Shown one piece after another: positions 4,146-45,450 of a stretch of DNA of 64,000 bases (its first letter is position 1; every line of letters starts with the position of its first letter). The DNA is from Arenicellales bacterium (GTDB taxonomy: Bacteria; Pseudomonadota; Gammaproteobacteria; Arenicellales; JBFEOO01). The DNA lies in contig JBFEOO010000009.1 of the NCBI GenBank assembly GCA_041550555.1, forward strand, positions 2,162-66,161. Direction: 5' to 3'. The notes under the pieces were generated by a model. That model saw only the letters and a program-made list of their open reading frames with translations, did no database searches and was not told where the DNA came from. The position numbers and the translations under genes are program-made.

Positions 4146-6584
<2,439 letters not shown>

Positions 6585-36328: not shown

Positions 36329-37915
36329 TTAGAATCCGCCGGCGTGCCCGTCTTTGCGATGATCCGATGCGGCGCAGTAGCCGTTGTGCAACGCGTAGAT
36401 CAGCTGGGCGCCGCCGAACAGCGCCATGGAAACATCGTCCGGATCCATCAGCGTGTGGCCACGTCGCTCGAGCTCGCCGCTGAGCTGGGGCGCAAACCCC
36501 TGCTCGAGACCGATGCGGCCGTCCCGGTCGATATACCAGCGCGGCGCGTCGGAGGCGGTCTGAGGGTTCTGTCCGTAGTCGACGATGCGCACCACCATCT
36601 GCACATGACCCTGTGCCTGCATGTGGCCCCCCATGACCCCGAAGCTCATGAGCGGGGCTCCGTTGCGCGACACGAAGCCCGGGATGATGGTGTGAAAGGG
36701 ACGCTTGCCGCCGCCGACGAGGTTCGGGTGCCCCGGCTCGAGGGAGAAGCCCACCCCCCTGTTCTGGAGACTGATGCCCGTTCCCGGAACCACCACGCCT
36801 GATCCAAATCCCTGATAGTTCGACTGGATCAAAGACACCATCATCCCGGCGGCATCGGCCGCCGTGAGGTATACGGTGCCTGCGTCGTCGGGCAGCGGCG
36901 CCACCGGTCGCGACGCTCGTTCCAGCGATATTGCGGCTGCCTGTCGGGCGAGTCGCGATGCGTCGAGTAGCTCATCGATCGACGTCTGCATCGTCGCGGG
37001 ATCACCGATGTGCTGGCGCGCCTGATCGAGGGCGATCTTCATCGCTTCGATCTGAACGTGCACGCTGTCGGGGGAATCCGCCGCATACCCCGCCACATCG
37101 ATGTGCTGCAGTATCCCCAACGCGATCAGAGCAGCCAGCCCTTGGCCGTTCGGGGGCAGCTCGTGCACGCGCACGTCGCGGTAGTCCTGAGCGATAGCGT
37201 CGACCCATTCCGAGCGGTGCTCGGCCAGATCGTCGAGGGACAGCGCCCCATTCTCGCGCTCGGCGTGTCGTACGAGCTGCTCGGCGAGGGCGCCTCGGTA
37301 AAACGATTCGCCCATCGATTCGGCAATGCTCTCGAGCGTCGCGGCCTGCTCGGGCATCACGAAGAGTTCGCCCGCGGTTGGTGGGCGTCCCGACGGCAGG
37401 TAGGCGTCGGCAAAGTCGCTCCGATGCCCGAAGCGTGTCGCTGCCAGGCGCCAGCGGGAGGCGATGATGGGCGAGACGATGAAGCCTTCTCGCGCGTAGT
37501 GGATGGCGGGGTCGAACAAGCTCGCAAACGGCAGCGATCCGAATCGGCGATGAAGCTGAACCCAAGCGTCCACGGCGCCGGGCACCGTCACCGATTCCCA
37601 GCCCTGCGCGGGCATCGCACTCAGCCCCTCGAAACGCTCCGGTGACCACGTTTTCGGCGCGCGTCCCGACGCGTTCAGCCCGTGGAGGCGGTTGCCGTCC
37701 CACACGATCGCGAAGGCGTCACTGCCGATGCCGTTACCGCTGGGCTCGACGACGGTCAGCGTAATCGCCATCGCCAGGGCCGCATCCACCGCATTGCCAC
37801 CCGATTGCAGCGCGTTCAGCCCGGCCTGCGTGGCGAGAGGCTGCGACGTGGCCACCGCATTGCGCGCCAGCACCGGAGAGCGCCGCGAGGGGTAGTCAAA
37901 CGTCCAGGAAATCAT
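36329..37915 (-). CDS. Gamma-glutamyltransferase-family Ntn hydrolase (cytoplasmic, YwrD-like)
   Basis: ATSQPLA..AG...GGNAVDAA, nucleophile GTVYL, SLIQSNYQGFGSG, KRPFHTIIP and GVMGGHMQAQGH; no signal peptide. Start ATG 37915. Confidence 0.93.
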   Translation of the reverse strand: MISWTFDYPSRRSPVLARNAVATSQPLATQAGLNALQSGGNAVDAALAMAITLTVVEPSGNGIGSDAFAIVWDGNRLHGLNASGRAPKTWSPERFEGLSAMPAQGWESVTVPGAVDAWVQLHRRFGSLPFASLFDPAIHYAREGFIVSPIIASRWRLAATRFGHRSDFADAYLPSGRPPTAGELFVMPEQAATLESIAESMGESFYRGALAEQLVRHAERENGALSLDDLAEHRSEWVDAIAQDYRDVRVHELPPNGQGLAALIALGILQHIDVAGYAADSPDSVHVQIEAMKIALDQARQHIGDPATMQTSIDELLDASRLARQAAAISLERASRPVAPLPDDAGTVYLTAADAAGMMVSLIQSNYQGFGSGVVVPGTGISLQNRGVGFSLEPGHPNLVGGGKRPFHTIIPGFVSRNGAPLMSFGVMGGHMQAQGHVQMVVRIVDYGQNPQTASDAPRWYIDRDGRIGLEQGFAPQLSGELERRGHTLMDPDDVSMALFGGAQLIYALHNGYCAASDHRKDGHAGGF

Positions 37916-38262
37916 CGCCTTCGAAGCGTATCTCCGTGGTGCGCGCCGTCGCCGGTCGCCGCGGATGCGGTGGGCTCGCTGGAGGGCCCGCTGTGGCGCC
38001 GATTGCGGCGAGCCATTCGGGGTGTCACGCAACCATGCCGGCCAGCGCCGCGGGCCTGACACGGCGTCTTCACTCTGCCAGAATCGTCGTTGCCAAACCA
38101 GAGTTACAAAGCCGTTGCTACGACATCCAATCGTGCCGCCGGCGCGCGGCGGGCGTTCTCTGCCCCGTCTCGTCGGCCGACGCACCGCGCCGCCCAGCTC
38201 GGGCCAATACCGGCGCGGGCCGATACCGGCGCACAGCGCTTGATCGCGACACTGCCGACGCG

Positions 38263-39124: not shown

Positions 39125-39631
39125 TTACTTCTGGATCACGTCCACGGTGAGGCTGCGCTCCTCCTCGCCGCAGTCTTGCTCGCACAGGCGGATGTCGAAC
39201 TCGGTGCCACGCACGCCGAGGGTGGCCACCGGCGTGTTCACGCGGTACGCATCCGGATTGGTCTTGGCAATGGCGCCGGTGAGTGCCCGCAGCCCGCCTT
39301 TGACGAGATTCAGGGCGGAGCCGTCGTTGTCGCCGCCGTACGCGTACTCGTCTATGACCAGCACGCTACCGGGGCGCACGGTCACCTTACTGTCGTCCGT
39401 AAAGCGGATGACGGTGAAGCTCTTGGCAGCGGTAGTCACCGTGTCACCCACCAGGATCTCCGCGCCCTTCTCGATGAGCCGCGCCTCGGCGCCGTCCTGC
39501 TGAGCGGACACACTTCCCTTGACCATAATCGCTTCGCCGGCGACGTCGGCCGCGGCTATGGGCGCCGTGAGCAGCACGGCCGCCGCGAAGAGCCATCGCC
39601 CGCGCGAGACCCTGGCATTTTTGCTCTTCAT
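39125..39631 (-). CDS. Secreted stand-alone FecR-domain protein (short form)
   Basis: Signal peptide; GDTVTT...IRFTDDSKVTV, LNLVKGGLR, VNTPVATLGVRGTEF; ends shortly after CEQDC. Confidence 0.88.
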   Translation of the reverse strand: MKSKNARVSRGRWLFAAAVLLTAPIAAADVAGEAIMVKGSVSAQQDGAEARLIEKGAEILVGDTVTTAAKSFTVIRFTDDSKVTVRPGSVLVIDEYAYGGDNDGSALNLVKGGLRALTGAIAKTNPDAYRVNTPVATLGVRGTEFDIRLCEQDCGEEERSLTVDVIQK

Positions 39632-39728
39632 GATGATCGCCCTTCCTAGTCAAACAAATCGTGCGATCTACATTACACCAAATCCGCCCCGTTTACTATC
39701 GGCCCTACCCCTAACTATACGCCTCTCG

Positions 39729-41306
39729 CTATGCGGGGCTGGCTGGCGGTGGCGCCGGCGGTGGCGGTGGCGGTGGTGGCGGTGGCGGTGGCGGTGGCGG
39801 TGGCACCGCTCCTCCGCCGCCACCGGACGGTGCGCCCGGCGCCGGCGCGGGTGCGCCGCCGGCCGTGATTGCCGCCGCGGCGCCGGCGCACTCTGCCGCC
39901 GCCATGAGTCGATCGATGCAGTCGGCGGGTGCTGCGCAATCCAGCCGGTCCATCTCGTGGTAAAAGACAATCGCGGGCACGTCCGTCATGCCGAGCTCGG
40001 CCGCCGCCCGCAACCGCTCGGGCTCGTCCACGATCAGGGTGCGTGACTCGCTCATCAGGGTGACCGCCATGGGCCGGCGCCCGAAGCCATTCTCACGCAC
40101 ATCACCGAGCAGCGCCTCGTACCGCTCGGGGTCGATTGCCTCGCGTTCGGGGATGTCGACCGTTTCCTGCCACTGCGCCATCGAAACCAGCAGATGGTGA
40201 TCGCCCACTCGAAGCTCCGGCACGGGGGTCAGCTCTTCGAGTTGGCCGAAGTAGGCGTCGGCGACCTCCTGCAGGGTGACGTCCGCCCCGAAACCGCTGA
40301 CCAGACGCTGATGGCGCTCGTTGTAGAGGAATACGACCGGCAGGCTGGTCAGCCCGCTGGCGTGCGCCGCCTCGAGCCGCTCGAGCGACCAGTCCAGCAC
40401 GATCTGCTGACCCTCGCGGTAGAGCGATACGAAAACCACCTCCCGCGGGTTTCCCCCCGGCCGGGTCGTGGGCGGGCCGGGTCGGTACCAATACTGCTCG
40501 CCCGCCAACGCGAGGAGCTCGGACATCGAGGCGTTGAGGTTGGCGTCGCCGGCACGCCAGAAGGGGGACGGCCCCAGACGATCGTTGTCCTCGAAGAAAC
40601 GCTTGGCGACCTCGGCGATGGTCCGGTTTTCCAACGGCAGTTCCTCGATCGCGTACACGGGGGCGTACTTCGCCGAGTCACGCGCCGTTCCGCACACCCA
40701 GCCAGGCATGTAGGGCAATAGATCGATGGCGGCGTTGACCAAGAAATCTACGCGCTCGGGCTGTGCCTTGACAGTCAGGAATATGGCGTCGCTCATCGTC
40801 ATCCCGAGACCAACCAGGTGCAGGAGGACGGAGTAGGGCGGGTAGCCGCGGCGCAGCAGGTCTGTAACCGCCGCCTGCCGTTGGTCGTTGATGGCGCGAA
40901 AGCTGCCGAAAGGTCGCCACGACTCGCTGCTGCCGACGCCGCACACGGCGGCGAGAATCAGGCTGGGGCGAGGCATCACATCTTGCAGGAAGAACTCCGG
41001 ATTCTGCTCCAGGCACGACAGCAGGCGCTCGTCGACGAAACCTGCGTCGCCCGGCTCGAGCTCGAGAAGCTCATCGCCCCGCTCTAAAAACGAGCCGCCA
41101 TCGTAGACCGTCATGTAAAGGCCAGGCGCCACGTCCTCTTCGGCCAACGAGCGGCACTCCGCTTCGGTGACCGCGGCCGCGGCCTGCTGGGCCTGTGTCG
41201 GCGGCGTGAAGGAGAAGAAAGCGATCAGCGTCGACAGCGATGCGATGGCCAGACGGCGGCCCGTCGCTGCGTGCCCCTGACCCCGCAGATTCGTCACATA
41301 CCGCAT
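39729..41306 (-). CDS. Secreted hypothetical protein: FecR-C-like segment, helical region, two tandem ParB/Srx-like repeats and a poly-Pro tail
   Basis: ATG 41306 after a GGGGGG RBS-like run; signal peptide (RRLAIASLSTLIAFFSFTPPTQA-Q); internal repeat visible by eye; 525 aa. Confidence 0.85.
   Translation of the reverse strand: MRYVTNLRGQGHAATGRRLAIASLSTLIAFFSFTPPTQAQQAAAAVTEAECRSLAEEDVAPGLYMTVYDGGSFLERGDELLELEPGDAGFVDERLLSCLEQNPEFFLQDVMPRPSLILAAVCGVGSSESWRPFGSFRAINDQRQAAVTDLLRRGYPPYSVLLHLVGLGMTMSDAIFLTVKAQPERVDFLVNAAIDLLPYMPGWVCGTARDSAKYAPVYAIEELPLENRTIAEVAKRFFEDNDRLGPSPFWRAGDANLNASMSELLALAGEQYWYRPGPPTTRPGGNPREVVFVSLYREGQQIVLDWSLERLEAAHASGLTSLPVVFLYNERHQRLVSGFGADVTLQEVADAYFGQLEELTPVPELRVGDHHLLVSMAQWQETVDIPEREAIDPERYEALLGDVRENGFGRRPMAVTLMSESRTLIVDEPERLRAAAELGMTDVPAIVFYHEMDRLDCAAPADCIDRLMAAAECAGAAAAITAGGAPAPAPGAPSGGGGGAVPPPPPPPPPPPPPPPPAPPPASPA
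39757..39804. repeat. (GGCGGT)n hexamer tract encoding a ~15-residue poly-Pro run
   Basis: About 8 near-perfect GGCGGT units; read on the minus strand as CCA/CCG Pro codons. Confidence 0.9.
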
Positions 41307-41627
41307 CGTGCCCCCCCTGATTTCCTGATCGGAGGCTGTCCTCCCACCGGAGAAATCTCGTCCGTGGCACACTCCCCTGTCGGGGGCGCGTCCCCGAGCG
41401 TCTTGCTGTCCGCCCTGTCCGCGGCGTACCTTGCCGAGTTTACGCGCCGGCGTGCCGTACTTGTCAAGTACGCACCTTTGCGTGTTCAATGGCGGTGGCG
41501 CCGTGATCGCCTAGAAAAAGCACCCCCTACTATGGAAAGCATAGGCCGAAAGGCCAAAAAGGCAACCGTTTTGGCGCTCCGCGCCGCAGCGCCCCCAGCG
41601 GTGCCCAATTCCTAGGGCGAGGACAGC

Positions 41628-43805
41628 ATGCGTCGCTATGTTCTGCGGATTGCCCTGAGCCTGACCATTGCGCTGGTCTTCGCCGCGCACGTTGCCGGGA
41701 TCTTCGAGCTCGGCATCATCGATCGTCTCGAAGACCTGAGCTACGACGCGCGCCTCAACCTGACGTTGCCCGGTGGGGTGGATCCGCGCATCGTGATCAT
41801 CGATATCGACGAGACCAGTCTGCGTCAGGAGGGCCACTGGCCATGGTCGCGGATCAAGCTCAAGGACCTGGTTGAAAAGCTTTTCGATCACTATGGCGTA
41901 GCCGTGCTCGGTTTCGACGTGGTTTTCGCCGAGCGGGAAGGCAATTATGTCGTCAACATGCTGCGCGACGTCAGTGCCCAGGCGGGTGACGACGAGTTTT
42001 CCGAGAAACTCGGCGCCTACGCCGATCAGTACGATCCTGATCAGCTCTTCGCAGAAGCCCTCGAAGGCCGGCCCGTGGTGCTTGGTTACTTCTTCAATAC
42101 CGATCCGACCAAAGTCGGTGAACAAACGGGCGCACTGCCGGAGCCGACGTTCGAGGAGGACGACTACATCACGCGATCGATCTTCGCGCCACGGGCATCG
42201 ACCTATGGCGGTAATTTACCGGTGCTCCAAGAGAGCGCATGGAACGCCGGCTTCTTCAGTACCCCGTTGATCGCCCGCGACGGAGTCATTCGGCGCGTGC
42301 CCCTGCTTCACGAGTATGAGGGGTCGCTCTACGAGTCGCTCGGGCTGGCGGTGGCTCGGGTTTATCTCGACGACATCGTGCTGCCGCTGTTCGCCGAGGG
42401 CGTCGAGGTGGCGGGTTATCCGTCAATGGAGGCGCTCGAATTGGCCGGTGAGCGGATTCCCATCGACGCCGACTCTGGCGTGCTGGTGCCCTATCGCGGG
42501 CCTCCGCGCAGCTTCCCGTATATATCCGCCACGGACGTGCTGAAGCTGACCGTGCCCGACGCGCAAGCCTTGGATGGAGCCATCGCCTTTCTGGGCGCGT
42601 CTGCCGCCGGGCTCGCCGACCTGCGGGCGACTCCCGTCGAAGCGGTGTTTCCCGGCGTCGAGGTTCACGCCAATGTCACGGCGGGTATCCTCGACGGCTC
42701 TTTCAAGGAGCGGGCGGCGTATACCCGCGGCGCCGAGCTTGGCTACATCGCCGTCTTTGGAACGTTGGTCGGCGTGGTGCTGCCCCTGCTCAATCCCGTC
42801 GTGGCCATGTCGCTGGTATTCGTGATGCTTGCCGGAACCATCGGCTTCAACATGTATCTCTGGCAGCAAGGCGTGGTGTTTCCGCTAGCAGGGAGCCTGT
42901 TGCTGGTCATCACGCTGTTCTCTGTCAACGCCGTGTACGGTTTCTCCGTAGAGTCGCGTTCGAAGCGGCTGCTGCGCCGGGCATTCAGCTCCTATCTCTC
43001 TCCCGCTCTGGTCGAGCAGATCGCCGACGATCCTAACAAGCTGCGTCTCGAGGGGGAAACCCGCATGATGACGTTCCTGTTCACCGATATCGCAGGGTTC
43101 ACCACATTCGCCGAGCGCGTCGAGCCGAAGCTTCTGGTCAGCCTGCTCAATGAGTATCTCGATTCCATGTGCGGCATCGTCATGGACTACGGTGGCACGA
43201 TCGACAAGATTGTTGGCGACGCCGTGCACGCAATCTTCAATGCGCCACTCGACCAGCCCGATCACGCCGAGCTTGCCGTCCGCTGCGCGCTCGATTTGGA
43301 CCGCTTTGGGATGGAGTTCATCGAAAAGCAGGAACAGCAGGGGGTCAAGTTCGGGGTCACGCGCATCGGCGTCAACACGGGCCCTGCCGTGGTCGGCAAC
43401 TTCGGAGGCAGTCGTCGCTTCGATTACACCGCTCACGGCGACGCGATCAACACGGCGGCGCGTATGGAGAGTGTGAACAAACACCTGGGGACACGCGTCT
43501 GCGTATCGAGGACCACGGTGGATCTGTGCACGGACCAACATTTCCGGCCCATTGCCGGCCTGGTCTTGAAGGGTAAGACCGAGGCCGTCGTCGCCTACGA
43601 GCCCATCAGCGAAGACGAGGCCAGCTCGCAGCGTGTTAAGGACTACCTCGCGGCGTATGAGCTAATGAAGGCCGAGTCGACCGAGGCACGGGCCGCTTTC
43701 GAGAAGCTGGCCGTCGACTATCCCGACGATCCGGTTATCCAGCTCCACCTCGGGCGGCTGACCGAGGGGGAAGTCGGCGAAGTGCTGGTGATGGCAGAGA
43801 AATAA
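41628..43805 (+). CDS. CHASE2-domain class III adenylate cyclase
   Basis: CHASE2 motifs (IVIIDIDETSL...WPWSR, LGFDVVFAE, PGVEVHAN) and three TMs. Cyclase motifs FTDIAGFT, IDKIVGDA, DYTAHGDAINTAARME; the Lys/Thr pair indicates ATP specificity. Short TPR-like C-tail. Confidence 0.95.
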   Translation: MRRYVLRIALSLTIALVFAAHVAGIFELGIIDRLEDLSYDARLNLTLPGGVDPRIVIIDIDETSLRQEGHWPWSRIKLKDLVEKLFDHYGVAVLGFDVVFAEREGNYVVNMLRDVSAQAGDDEFSEKLGAYADQYDPDQLFAEALEGRPVVLGYFFNTDPTKVGEQTGALPEPTFEEDDYITRSIFAPRASTYGGNLPVLQESAWNAGFFSTPLIARDGVIRRVPLLHEYEGSLYESLGLAVARVYLDDIVLPLFAEGVEVAGYPSMEALELAGERIPIDADSGVLVPYRGPPRSFPYISATDVLKLTVPDAQALDGAIAFLGASAAGLADLRATPVEAVFPGVEVHANVTAGILDGSFKERAAYTRGAELGYIAVFGTLVGVVLPLLNPVVAMSLVFVMLAGTIGFNMYLWQQGVVFPLAGSLLLVITLFSVNAVYGFSVESRSKRLLRRAFSSYLSPALVEQIADDPNKLRLEGETRMMTFLFTDIAGFTTFAERVEPKLLVSLLNEYLDSMCGIVMDYGGTIDKIVGDAVHAIFNAPLDQPDHAELAVRCALDLDRFGMEFIEKQEQQGVKFGVTRIGVNTGPAVVGNFGGSRRFDYTAHGDAINTAARMESVNKHLGTRVCVSRTTVDLCTDQHFRPIAGLVLKGKTEAVVAYEPISEDEASSQRVKDYLAAYELMKAESTEARAAFEKLAVDYPDDPVIQLHLGRLTEGEVGEVLVMAEK

Positions 43806-43860: not shown

Positions 43861-45450
43861 TCAGTACGCCGCGGCAATGCCGTCCCCGCGGGGGTCGGCG
43901 GCACCCTCGATAACACCGTCAGGGCGCCGCACGACTGCACCGGCATGCCCCATGCGCTCGTCGAATCCCGCAACGACCTCCACGTCATGGCCGGCACGGG
44001 CGAGCGCTTCGCGCACCTCGGCCGGGAAACGACGCTCTATCGTGAGATTGAGGCGCGGTGTTCCCCACGTACGCCCGAGCAGCCAGCGCGGCGCGGTTAC
44101 CGCCTGCTGCAACGGCTGGTCATACATGGCGTAGCGGCTGAACACGGCGGCCTGGCTCTGTGGCTGGCCGTCACCGCCCATGCACCCGTAGACCATGAGG
44201 CGCCCGTCGCGCAACCTTGCCAGCGCGGGATGGATCGTGTGAAAGGGGCGTCGGCCCGGCGCGAGCGCATTGGGCGCCTTGGCGTCGAGGCGAAAGCTGG
44301 CACCGCGATTCTGCCAGGTGATGCCCGTCTGCGGCAGAACGAGGCCGGAGCCGAACTCCCAGTAGATGCTCTGTATGAAGCTCACCGCCCGGCCGGCGCC
44401 GTCGATGGCACCAAGCCAGACGGTGTCCCCGCGCGCCTCGCCCGTCGCCCAGGGCGCTGCCTGCGCCAGGTCGATCTCCCCGGCCAAGGCGTCGAGGCGC
44501 GCTGCATCGAGATACTCCCGCGGGTCGACGCGCATGGTTGCCGGGTCGGCGATGTGCGCGTCGCGGACGCGGAACGCGCTTTTGGTCGCCTCGATCAGCC
44601 GGTGCACGTGATCGAAGCCATCCGCCTCCGGCGGACGCATGCGATCGAAGAGGGCGAGAATGATCAGCGAGGCGAGCCCCTGCGTAGGCGGTGGCAGCTG
44701 ATAGACCCTGGCGCAGTCGAGATCCACGCTGAGCGGGGAGACGCTGAGCGCCCGGTGAGCATGCAGATCGGCTGCACGAAGCGGGCTGTCGACGTGGGCG
44801 AGATCGGCGGCGAGCGAGGCGGCAAGCTCACCGCGGTAGAAGTCGTCGAGTCCTCTGCGTGCGAGCTGCTCCAGGGTCGCCGCCAGGCGTGGCTGACGCA
44901 GCGGCGCCCCGACGGTCGGGGCCTGATCCCCGTTCAAGAACACCTCGGCGAAGCCCGGGCATGGGAGCAGCTCATCGAGATGGTCAGCGGTGTTCTGGTG
45001 CTGACTGCGGGTGGTAGGGACGCCCGCATTGGCGTAATAGATGGCGTCCTCGAACAGCCGTGCGAGGGGCAGCCGCCCGCCCCAGCGCGCCGCGATATCG
45101 AGCGCCGCCGCCCACCCCGACACAGCGCCGGCGACGGTGATGGCGGCAAGAGGGCCGCGCGTGGGCATATTTTCGTAGCCGAGGTGACGATAGAAGTCGA
45201 TCGAGACCGCGCTCGCCGCGGCACCGCAGGCGTCGATGGCGGTCGGCGCGCCGTCGCCGCCGGTCAGTAGCCAGAAATTGTCGCCGCCCAAACTGTTCAT
45301 ATGTGGATAGACGACGGCGATGGTGGCGCCGGCCGCCACCATCGCCTCGATGGCGTTGCCGCCCTCGCGCAGCACGCGTAATCCTGCTTGCGCGGCGAGG
45401 TGATGCGGGGCGACGACCATGCCGCGGGTAGCTCGTGGGGTGTGCCGCAT
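43861..45450 (-). CDS. GGT-family Ntn hydrolase, oxamate amidohydrolase HpxW-like
   Basis: GMVVAPHHLAAQAG...IAVVYPHMNSLGGD, GDTVW nucleophile, SFIQSIYWEFGSG and MGGDGQPQSQ; resembles the HpxW subfamily from recall. Confidence 0.85.
   Translation of the reverse strand: MRHTPRATRGMVVAPHHLAAQAGLRVLREGGNAIEAMVAAGATIAVVYPHMNSLGGDNFWLLTGGDGAPTAIDACGAAASAVSIDFYRHLGYENMPTRGPLAAITVAGAVSGWAAALDIAARWGGRLPLARLFEDAIYYANAGVPTTRSQHQNTADHLDELLPCPGFAEVFLNGDQAPTVGAPLRQPRLAATLEQLARRGLDDFYRGELAASLAADLAHVDSPLRAADLHAHRALSVSPLSVDLDCARVYQLPPPTQGLASLIILALFDRMRPPEADGFDHVHRLIEATKSAFRVRDAHIADPATMRVDPREYLDAARLDALAGEIDLAQAAPWATGEARGDTVWLGAIDGAGRAVSFIQSIYWEFGSGLVLPQTGITWQNRGASFRLDAKAPNALAPGRRPFHTIHPALARLRDGRLMVYGCMGGDGQPQSQAAVFSRYAMYDQPLQQAVTAPRWLLGRTWGTPRLNLTIERRFPAEVREALARAGHDVEVVAGFDERMGHAGAVVRRPDGVIEGAADPRGDGIAAAY

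Follow-up and report, generated by a model that had tools for sequence, protein, structure and literature searches.

A candidate envelope-to-cyclic AMP signalling unit in a marine-sediment gammaproteobacterium, built around a FecR protein apparently divided between two genes

Few extracytoplasmic sensor domains of bacteria are as common as CHASE2, for which our literature search turned up neither a ligand nor an activation mechanism; the best clue to its function is the FecR gene that recurs beside it. What, then, do the exported neighbours of a CHASE2 receptor contribute? We addressed this question at a locus of an uncultured marine-sediment gammaproteobacterium, in which a CHASE2 adenylate cyclase gene lies next to the genes of a short exported FecR protein of 168 residues (FecR168) and of a second exported protein of 525 residues (P525). 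The stretch of DNA analysed, hereafter the window, comprises 64,000 nucleotides (positions 2162-66161 of contig C9) of a 3.9-Mb genome in 155 contigs. An open reading frame (ORF) check showed all three genes to be genuine, and the arrangement described in the original prediction, a cyclase gene divergent from two co-oriented genes with signal peptides, was borne out: the P525 and FecR168 genes lie on the same strand, 97 bp apart, and the cyclase gene faces away from them across an intergenic spacer (Table 1). The analysis suggests that the three genes form one envelope-to-cyclic AMP (cAMP) signalling unit with a split FecR adaptor at its centre, a reading to which we give slightly better than even chances.

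The split was recognized by comparison with long FecR proteins. FecR168 carries a Pfam FecR domain (PF04773, E 6.5e-12, above the gathering score) behind a signal-peptide-like N-terminus (RWLFAAAVLLTAPIAAADV). Residues 41-118 of P525, in turn, have short matches in further genomes from the same order, and all ten of the matching stretches fetched (tblastn, ten loci) are the C-terminus of a long FecR protein of 250-340 aa, the N-terminal half of which is 40-47% identical to FecR168. We therefore call this part of P525 the N-module, and genes that possess it P525-type genes. When alignments of the long FecR and the P525-type proteins were compared, the C-terminal module (C-module) of the former mapped to residues 45-117 of P525 (hhalign 98.2%, E 5e-14, 70 columns). 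In alignments with the long FecR proteins, FecR168 ends just past a conserved RGT...R.C...C.EE motif, and its end (RGTEFDIRLCEQDCGEEE...) is the exact point at which the long form runs on into the C-module. The FecR protein is thus short, as originally described, in that it stops at the break point of the long form. The single-chain long form is absent here; the FecR domain is found on FecR168 and the C-module on P525, and jointly they make up the whole of it. Taken together, the point at which FecR168 stops and the homology of the N-module indicate, from sequence comparison, that a long FecR is split across two genes in the window.

A natural fusion points in the same direction. The metagenomic protein P0011 (MFC1665523.1, 626 aa) combines the FecR domain, the C-module and the core of P525, which resembles the ParB/sulfiredoxin (Srx) superfamily, in a single chain. 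Its AlphaFold2 (AF2) model has a mean predicted local distance difference test score (pLDDT) of 84.8 and a predicted template modelling score of 0.76, with a pLDDT of 93-96 in the C-module. In a Foldseek search the N-terminal part of the model found its best PDB matches in periplasmic signalling domains of the FecR/PupR kind, those of BDI_1681 (4m0n, E 2.3e-7) and PupR CCSSD (6ovk_R, E 8.5e-7), over 161-182 columns. On the strength of the split gene and the fusion, FecR168 and P525 very probably bind each other in the periplasm. The periplasmic complex of the two exported proteins that had been proposed thus gains support; its proposed role in presenting a nucleotide does not, for reasons given below.

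Table 1. Features of the locus, with positions counted from the first letter of the window.
Feature	Position	Strand	Remark
ORF flanking the module	36329-38185	-	gamma-glutamyltransferase-like, by reading of the translation only
Short exported FecR protein (FecR168), 168 aa	39125-39631	-	
FecR168 aa 36-96, retention-module-like	~39344-39526		columns 28-91 of the long-FecR profile
P525, exported 525-aa protein	39729-41306	-	
P525 C-terminal tail, aa 463-525	39732-39920	-	from the translation
P525 putative ParB/Srx-like repeat 2, aa ~346-462	39921-40271	-	ParB_N, SbnI and Foldseek matches
P525 putative ParB/Srx-like repeat 1, aa ~231-341	40284-40616	-	internal duplication
P525 N-module, aa 45-117	40956-41174	-	homologue of the long-FecR C-module
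Divergent intergenic region, 321 bp	41307-41627		
Perfect 8-1-8 palindrome	41456-41472		candidate operator
Predicted CHASE2 class IIIb adenylate cyclase, 725 aa	41628-43805	+	
CHASE2 domain, aa 19-364	41682-42719		Pfam CHASE2, E 6.5e-53
Three transmembrane segments, aa ~372-440	42741-42947		read from the translation
Cyclase domain, aa 480-641	43065-43550		Pfam Guanylate_cyc, E 4.5e-23
ORF flanking the module	43861-45450	-	gamma-glutamyltransferase-like, by reading of the translation only

FecR168 itself differs from the FecR anti-sigma factors. The FecR domain is preceded by the signal peptide alone, with neither an anti-sigma domain nor a transmembrane helix, and an assignment to the FecI-FecR-FecA type was rejected, as we found no cytoplasmic domain, no transmembrane helix, no adjacent sigma factor and no TonB-dependent transducer. 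In a sequence search of the PDB, the FecR profile matched the retention module of MpIBP; MtxA, PupR and BDI_1681 were not matched. The likeness to the retention module of the LapA/MpIBP type of RTX adhesins concerns the N-terminal half of FecR168 and of the long FecR proteins (Table 1) and was obtained with NCBIfam retention_LapA (6.4e-5), in the match of the FecR profile to PDB 5ix9 (E 1e-3) and in Foldseek (target TM-score 0.83). The retention module of these adhesins reportedly lodges in an outer-membrane pore. Two more short FecR paralogues are present in the genome, at C23:40389-40964 (72% identity) and C68:~4961-5341 (61%), without a P525-like or CHASE2 neighbour; the second copy lies near genes for a multihaem cytochrome and a large outer-membrane protein.

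The third gene encodes what we predict to be an intact class IIIb adenylate cyclase. A CHASE2 domain lies between one N-terminal hydrophobic segment (aa 5-27) and a block of three transmembrane segments, which is the layout of CyaD1 and CyaK; the cyclase domain follows, and the C-terminus forms a TPR-like hairpin (aa 672-711, a weak TPR_14 match). The best solved relatives are adenylate cyclases, such as CyaB of Pseudomonas aeruginosa (3r5g, E 3.9e-28). In the alignment with CyaB, the two metal-binding Asp residues were found in FTDIAGFT and GDAV, the substrate Lys in IDKIVGD, its companion Thr in DYTAHG, and the transition-state Asn and Arg both in AINTAAR, so that the catalytic hexad of class IIIb is complete. 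The original description of a complete CHASE2 adenylate cyclase with three transmembrane segments and intact catalytic residues agrees with these results. It is the sole CHASE2 gene of the genome.

The gene-neighbourhood comparison that had been suggested as a test of the trio came out in its favour. P525-type genes were seen in 15 loci, 13 of which are long enough to judge adjacency to a cyclase gene. A short FecR gene adjoins the P525-type gene in all 15, and a CHASE2 cyclase gene lies nearby in nine of the 13 (the window, L018, L020-L023, L049/50, L052 and L054), representing at least three families and several metagenomes. The linked cyclases are orthologous to that of the window, with 39-41% identity over the full length. 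Eight of these nine loci have the cyclase, FecR and P525 genes in this order, tightly spaced on a single strand, and in the window P525 precedes FecR and the pair is divergent from the cyclase gene; since the trio is kept while the gene order differs, its linkage has survived rearrangement. In ten loci (L017-L020, L024, L048, L049, L051, L054 and L056) the P525-type gene is followed by a gene for an HD-domain metalloprotein of the Npun_R2479 family (about 280-300 aa, no signal peptide), for which no relative was found in the PDB and which does not occur in the genome of the window. On the metagenomic contig pair L049/L050 a 121-aa cyclic nucleotide (cNMP)-binding protein is also encoded downstream (L049 7749-8114). 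Of these two proteins, the first could serve the module as a phosphodiesterase and the second as an effector.

The ATG start codon of P525 follows a Shine-Dalgarno-like run, GGGGGGG, and the protein comprises a signal-peptide-like N-terminus (RRLAIASLSTLIAFFSFTPPTQAQQ), the N-module, a helical subdomain, two ParB/Srx-like repeats, a Cys-rich stretch, five Gly residues, a poly-Pro run and a terminal ASPA. The N-module displays the motifs C...PGLY...AGF.D...SCL..P.F..D. When sub-alignments of residues 222-345 and 346-462 were compared, they matched over 109 columns (hhalign 99.6%, E 6.3e-24), and we therefore take the tandem duplication to be real. A sub-threshold match to Pfam ParB_N (aa 388-447, E 0.0038) and a match of the family profile to SbnI in the PDB (5uje, E 4.4e-4) both fall in repeat 2. 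In the AF2 model of P525, which was built with 20 homologues, residues 145-450 reached a pLDDT of 85-98 and the N-terminal 140 residues were poorly modelled. When the PDB was searched with Foldseek, members of the ParB/Srx superfamily took each of the first 36 places (sulfiredoxin, Noc, ParB, KorB, SbnI, SerK and PadC); the best match, to Srx, had a probability of 0.99, an E-value of 0.02 and a target TM-score of about 0.5, and the E-values are modest throughout (0.02-0.6). The model and the profile matches thus predict a ParB/Srx-like fold for each repeat. Both parts of the original description of P525, a fragment resembling the C-terminal part of FecR and duplicated ParB/Srx-like domains, stand, except that the fragment is not the Pfam FecR_C domain: an assignment to FecR_C/DUF4974 was discarded, as there is no match and the modelled module is all-beta with five strands.

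The conserved ParB/Srx motif for nucleotide or phosphate binding was sought in P525 and not found. The position that is GxxR in ParB, DGxHR in SerK and SbnI, and GCHR in Srx is DEPER in repeat 2 of P525, and the column varies within the family (DEADR, DDPVA and others), with the Arg of repeat 2 kept in most members. The invariant columns of the family (Gly, Pro, Trp, Tyr and Ala) are structural, and no catalytic-type residue is invariant. The tail has a Cys-rich stretch, GGGGG and a Pro-rich run before the terminal ASPA, Pro making up about 26 of the final 32 residues. It is kept family-wide (P0003-P0103), in CHASE2-linked members and in the members of polysaccharide-export loci described below alike, the extreme C-terminus being [AVST]SP[SNE] in most of them and CASPPC in one subgroup; to our knowledge, no known sorting signal corresponds to this motif.

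It is important to mention that word-indexed searches proved too insensitive for this family, returning two core-only relatives for P525 and two near-identical proteins for the C-module of long FecR. The family was instead defined by an exhaustive HMMER scan of 1.84 billion representative sequences, together with genome searches. The scan yielded 101 relatives (E below 1e-3), of which about seven have the N-module. Pfam and NCBIfam hold no family for the core, the helical subdomain or the C-module, and the six family clusters looked up are unnamed, except for the fusion P0011, which is listed as "FecR domain-containing protein". A literature search found no report of exported ParB/Srx proteins. 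We regard P525 and its relatives as an undescribed exported family with a ParB/Srx-like fold.

The relatives that lack the N-module offer a hint as to what the unit may sense. In these core-only paralogues the signal peptide leads directly into the core. None of their 14 loci has a FecR or CHASE2 gene beside the paralogue, and in 12 of the 14 the paralogue opens a conserved exopolysaccharide (EPS) locus of the EpsL-Wza-Wzc type, with the order serS, paralogue, EpsL-like outer-membrane barrel, Wza/EpsE-like exporter, Wzc-like tyrosine kinase, VpsP-like protein, Wzy-like protein and sugar epimerases. The genome of the window has such a locus of its own (L032, C52:5843-15103; serS, core-only paralogue, EpsL-like barrel, Wza-, Wzc- and Wzy-like genes), whose paralogue is 36% identical to the core of P525, and every one of the nine genomes that carry a P525-type gene has a core-only paralogue as well. 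P525 was not assigned to the EPS-locus members, from which it differs in its additional N-module and its FecR and CHASE2 neighbours; a tree of the core groups the P525-type proteins in a single clade (98/95) apart from the core-only proteins, and the window protein branches first within this clade.

A second sister context was found in ten loci (L037-L046) of relatives from the same order as the window organism (G008, G041, G030, G049, G035, G059, G021, G037 and G055). Here the long FecR lies between a TpsB of the ShlB/FhaC type and a giant TpsA (1000-1950 aa) with a two-partner secretion (TPS) domain. The same CHASE2 cyclase, as a full-length or near-full-length match, is close by in four of the ten (L038, L040, L041 and L042), and L043 has a match to the cyclase domain only. 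These loci may encode a TPS-linked cAMP sensor. Since the cyclase is paired with a long FecR and TPS proteins in these loci, the cyclase and FecR appear to form a constant chassis, to which one third component or another is added.

The spacer between the cyclase and P525 genes contains a perfect 8-1-8 palindrome, CGTACTTG-T-CAAGTACG, which could be an operator. The 5-1-5 core of this palindrome occurs nowhere else in the 3.9 Mb of the genome, so no regulon can be deduced from it. No sigma-70 consensus was found in the spacer, and promoter and terminator scans did not rise above the shuffled background. Near-identical DNA was found in many marine and sediment metagenomes, and one metatranscriptome holds the region, with an even, low contig depth over the genes, the spacer and the flanks, at which transcription is indistinguishable from DNA carry-over.

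How might the three proteins work together? Judging from their signal peptides, FecR168 and P525 would be exported by the Sec system. In the periplasm, FecR168 and the N-module would reassemble as a unit resembling the long FecR, as the homology, the break point and the fusion suggest. This unit may dock on the periplasmic CHASE2 domain and set the activity of the cyclase, a step suggested only by the conserved adjacency of the genes, here and in other CHASE2 systems. The helical subdomain, the degenerate repeats, the disulfide-rich stretch and the poly-Pro arm with its ASPx terminus would be the sensing or tethering end. The likeliest input would be the state of an outer-membrane or EPS-export component, or the polymer itself, because the only paralogues of the P525 core open EpsL-Wza-Wzc loci, one of them in this genome; a small nucleotide appears unlikely. 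The cyclase, of the class IIIb homodimeric type, would make cAMP, and among the 15 cNMP-binding proteins that the genome encodes at other sites, some would respond to it. This account can be carried further: the split FecR adaptor would couple the EPS export machine (EpsL-like barrel, Wza and Wzc) to cAMP synthesis through a periplasmic ParB/Srx-like module that binds no nucleotide and docks by poly-Pro/ASPx on an outer-membrane component, CHASE2 would read protein partners instead of small ligands, and the chassis would have been rewired to TPS in sister loci. In this extended form, we hold it to be rather unlikely.

Several observations weigh against a split FecR adaptor that gates the cyclase. 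Four loci of one clade (L017, L019, L024 and L056) have the FecR-P525 pair without a nearby CHASE2 gene, and at least one of the pair-only genomes keeps a CHASE2 cyclase gene beside a different, long FecR. In the AF2 model of P525 alone the N-module has a pLDDT below 50, and the EPS link comes only from paralogy and co-occurrence, both confounded by phylogeny. A further objection is provided by Sinorhizobium meliloti, where smc02177 (FecR) and smc02178, beside cyaD1, are activated by Clr and cAMP and their mutants still perceive the plant signal (PMC5498481). FecR168 and P525 may accordingly be the output rather than the input, that is, cAMP-controlled envelope effectors, possibly acting on polysaccharide export, that do not gate the cyclase. 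Succinoglycan and a further polysaccharide cluster are likewise under the control of Clr (PMC5498481), and the divergent position of the pair in the window, the operator-like palindrome in the spacer and the four pair-only loci would all suit such a role. The operon-like order of eight of the nine cyclase-linked loci, however, fits stoichiometric partners better than a regulator and its target; relaying signals in the periplasm is an established role of FecR-type domains (PupR, 6ovk), and no Crp/Clr-type gene occurs on the contig of the window. We consider an output role possible but doubtful, and it would be compatible with an input role, since feedback could join the two.

The pair-only loci, and the roots of the core family in EPS loci, could also mean that FecR168 and P525 are accessories of polysaccharide or outer-membrane machinery, with no functional link to the cyclase and an adjacency to CHASE2 that is a historical accident. 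This is very improbable in view of nine independent cyclase-adjacent loci with varied gene order and flanks, an association of CHASE2 with FecR that is general across phyla (PMC5192318, PMC9239204), and the pairing of orthologous cyclases with long FecR in sister loci. Least probable of all is the ligand of the original prediction, in which the duplicated ParB/Srx domains bind a periplasmic nucleotide or phosphorylated compound and present it to CHASE2. Although the fold comes from a nucleotide-binding superfamily and most members keep the Arg of repeat 2, the degenerate and variable motif and the export of the protein argue against nucleotide chemistry in P525; in addition, the invariant residues are structural, nucleoside triphosphates are not available in the periplasm, and the paralogues belong to polysaccharide-export loci. 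This part of the prediction is therefore not supported, and we continue to favour the split FecR adaptor acting on the cyclase.

Comparison with known systems shows which elements of this arrangement have counterparts elsewhere. A LysM-FecR protein accompanies a CHASE2 histidine kinase in Burkholderia ("BiofilmReg") and P. aeruginosa (PMC5192318), Campylobacterota have a cluster of a CHASE2 cyclase, FecR, TPR protein and phosphodiesterase (PMC9239204), and in S. meliloti the outer-membrane barrel NsrA acts upstream of CyaD1, CyaD2 and CyaK (PMC7529298, PMC13001267). A mode in which CHASE2 reads protein partners thus has reported precedents in several systems, by analogy with which the window unit may operate. 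The LysM-FecR and Campylobacterota systems likewise combine a CHASE2 receptor with an exported FecR protein, and the HD-domain and small cNMP-binding proteins encoded in relatives of the window's locus are a further likeness; the window module, however, has neither a LysM domain nor a TPR partner, and its third component is a protein with two ParB/Srx-like domains that carries half of the FecR unit. The one studied analogue is S. meliloti cyaD1-smc02177-smc02178, likewise a CHASE2 class III cyclase beside an exported FecR protein, with a periplasmic protein of unknown function as third member (P525 and SMc02178 being likened by description), in a species where cAMP signalling is likewise tied to surface polysaccharides (PMC5498481; PMC7529298; PMC13001267). 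S. meliloti is nevertheless a symbiont with Clr, whereas the window organism is a marine-sediment gammaproteobacterium without a Clr-type regulator on the contig, and neither the split FecR nor the ParB/Srx-like core has been described for the S. meliloti module.

With FecR/PupR-type regulators, including PupR CCSSD (6ovk) and BDI_1681 (4m0n), the window shares the Pfam FecR domain, and the model of the fusion matches both at E 1e-6 to 1e-7. Such proteins are periplasmic relays that link an outer-membrane partner to a signalling protein of the inner membrane, as we propose for the window unit. The window unit differs from them in the absence of an anti-sigma domain, of a transmembrane helix and of a neighbouring extracytoplasmic function (ECF) sigma factor or TonB transducer, in having the second subdomain on another gene, and in a CHASE2 cyclase as output. 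The likeness of P525 to the ParB/Srx superfamily (ParB, Noc, KorB, sulfiredoxin, SerK/SbnI) is one of fold in each repeat, and weakly of sequence in repeat 2. Unlike these proteins, P525 is predicted to be exported, is tandemly duplicated, has a degenerate motif and no helix-turn-helix or other DNA-binding part, and belongs to polysaccharide-export and CHASE2 contexts. Magnetotactic bacteria have an mtx cluster in which the gene for periplasmic MtxA, likewise an exported multidomain partner, is followed directly by that for a CHASE2 adenylate cyclase (PMC4439547), but the C-terminal Big/TPR-like domains of MtxA are unrelated to the P525 core, and the FecR profile did not match MtxA in the PDB search.

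The surroundings of the module in the genome can be summarized briefly. The two flanking ORFs listed in Table 1 are paralogous, and by reading of the translations the genes around the module are of dehydrogenase and gamma-glutamyltransferase types; they include neither an ECF sigma factor nor a TonB-dependent transducer. The genome encodes about 22 further class III cyclase domains besides the window cyclase, which is very many for 3.9 Mb, and the 15 cNMP-binding domains mentioned above, none of them on contig C9; with these numbers, cAMP signalling is clearly central to the organism.

The association of CHASE2 with FecR is an established theme, and what is new at this locus is the split FecR together with a ParB/Srx-like, EPS-related component. 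The split gene and its natural fusion provide a clean genetic argument for FecR as part of a larger periplasmic complex, and the locus supplies a candidate target of that complex, namely polysaccharide-export or outer-membrane machinery. If the coupling to EPS export holds true, CHASE2-FecR would be a general "secretion-status sensor". With three proteins of a size suited to reconstitution, the question of how CHASE2 is controlled becomes directly testable.

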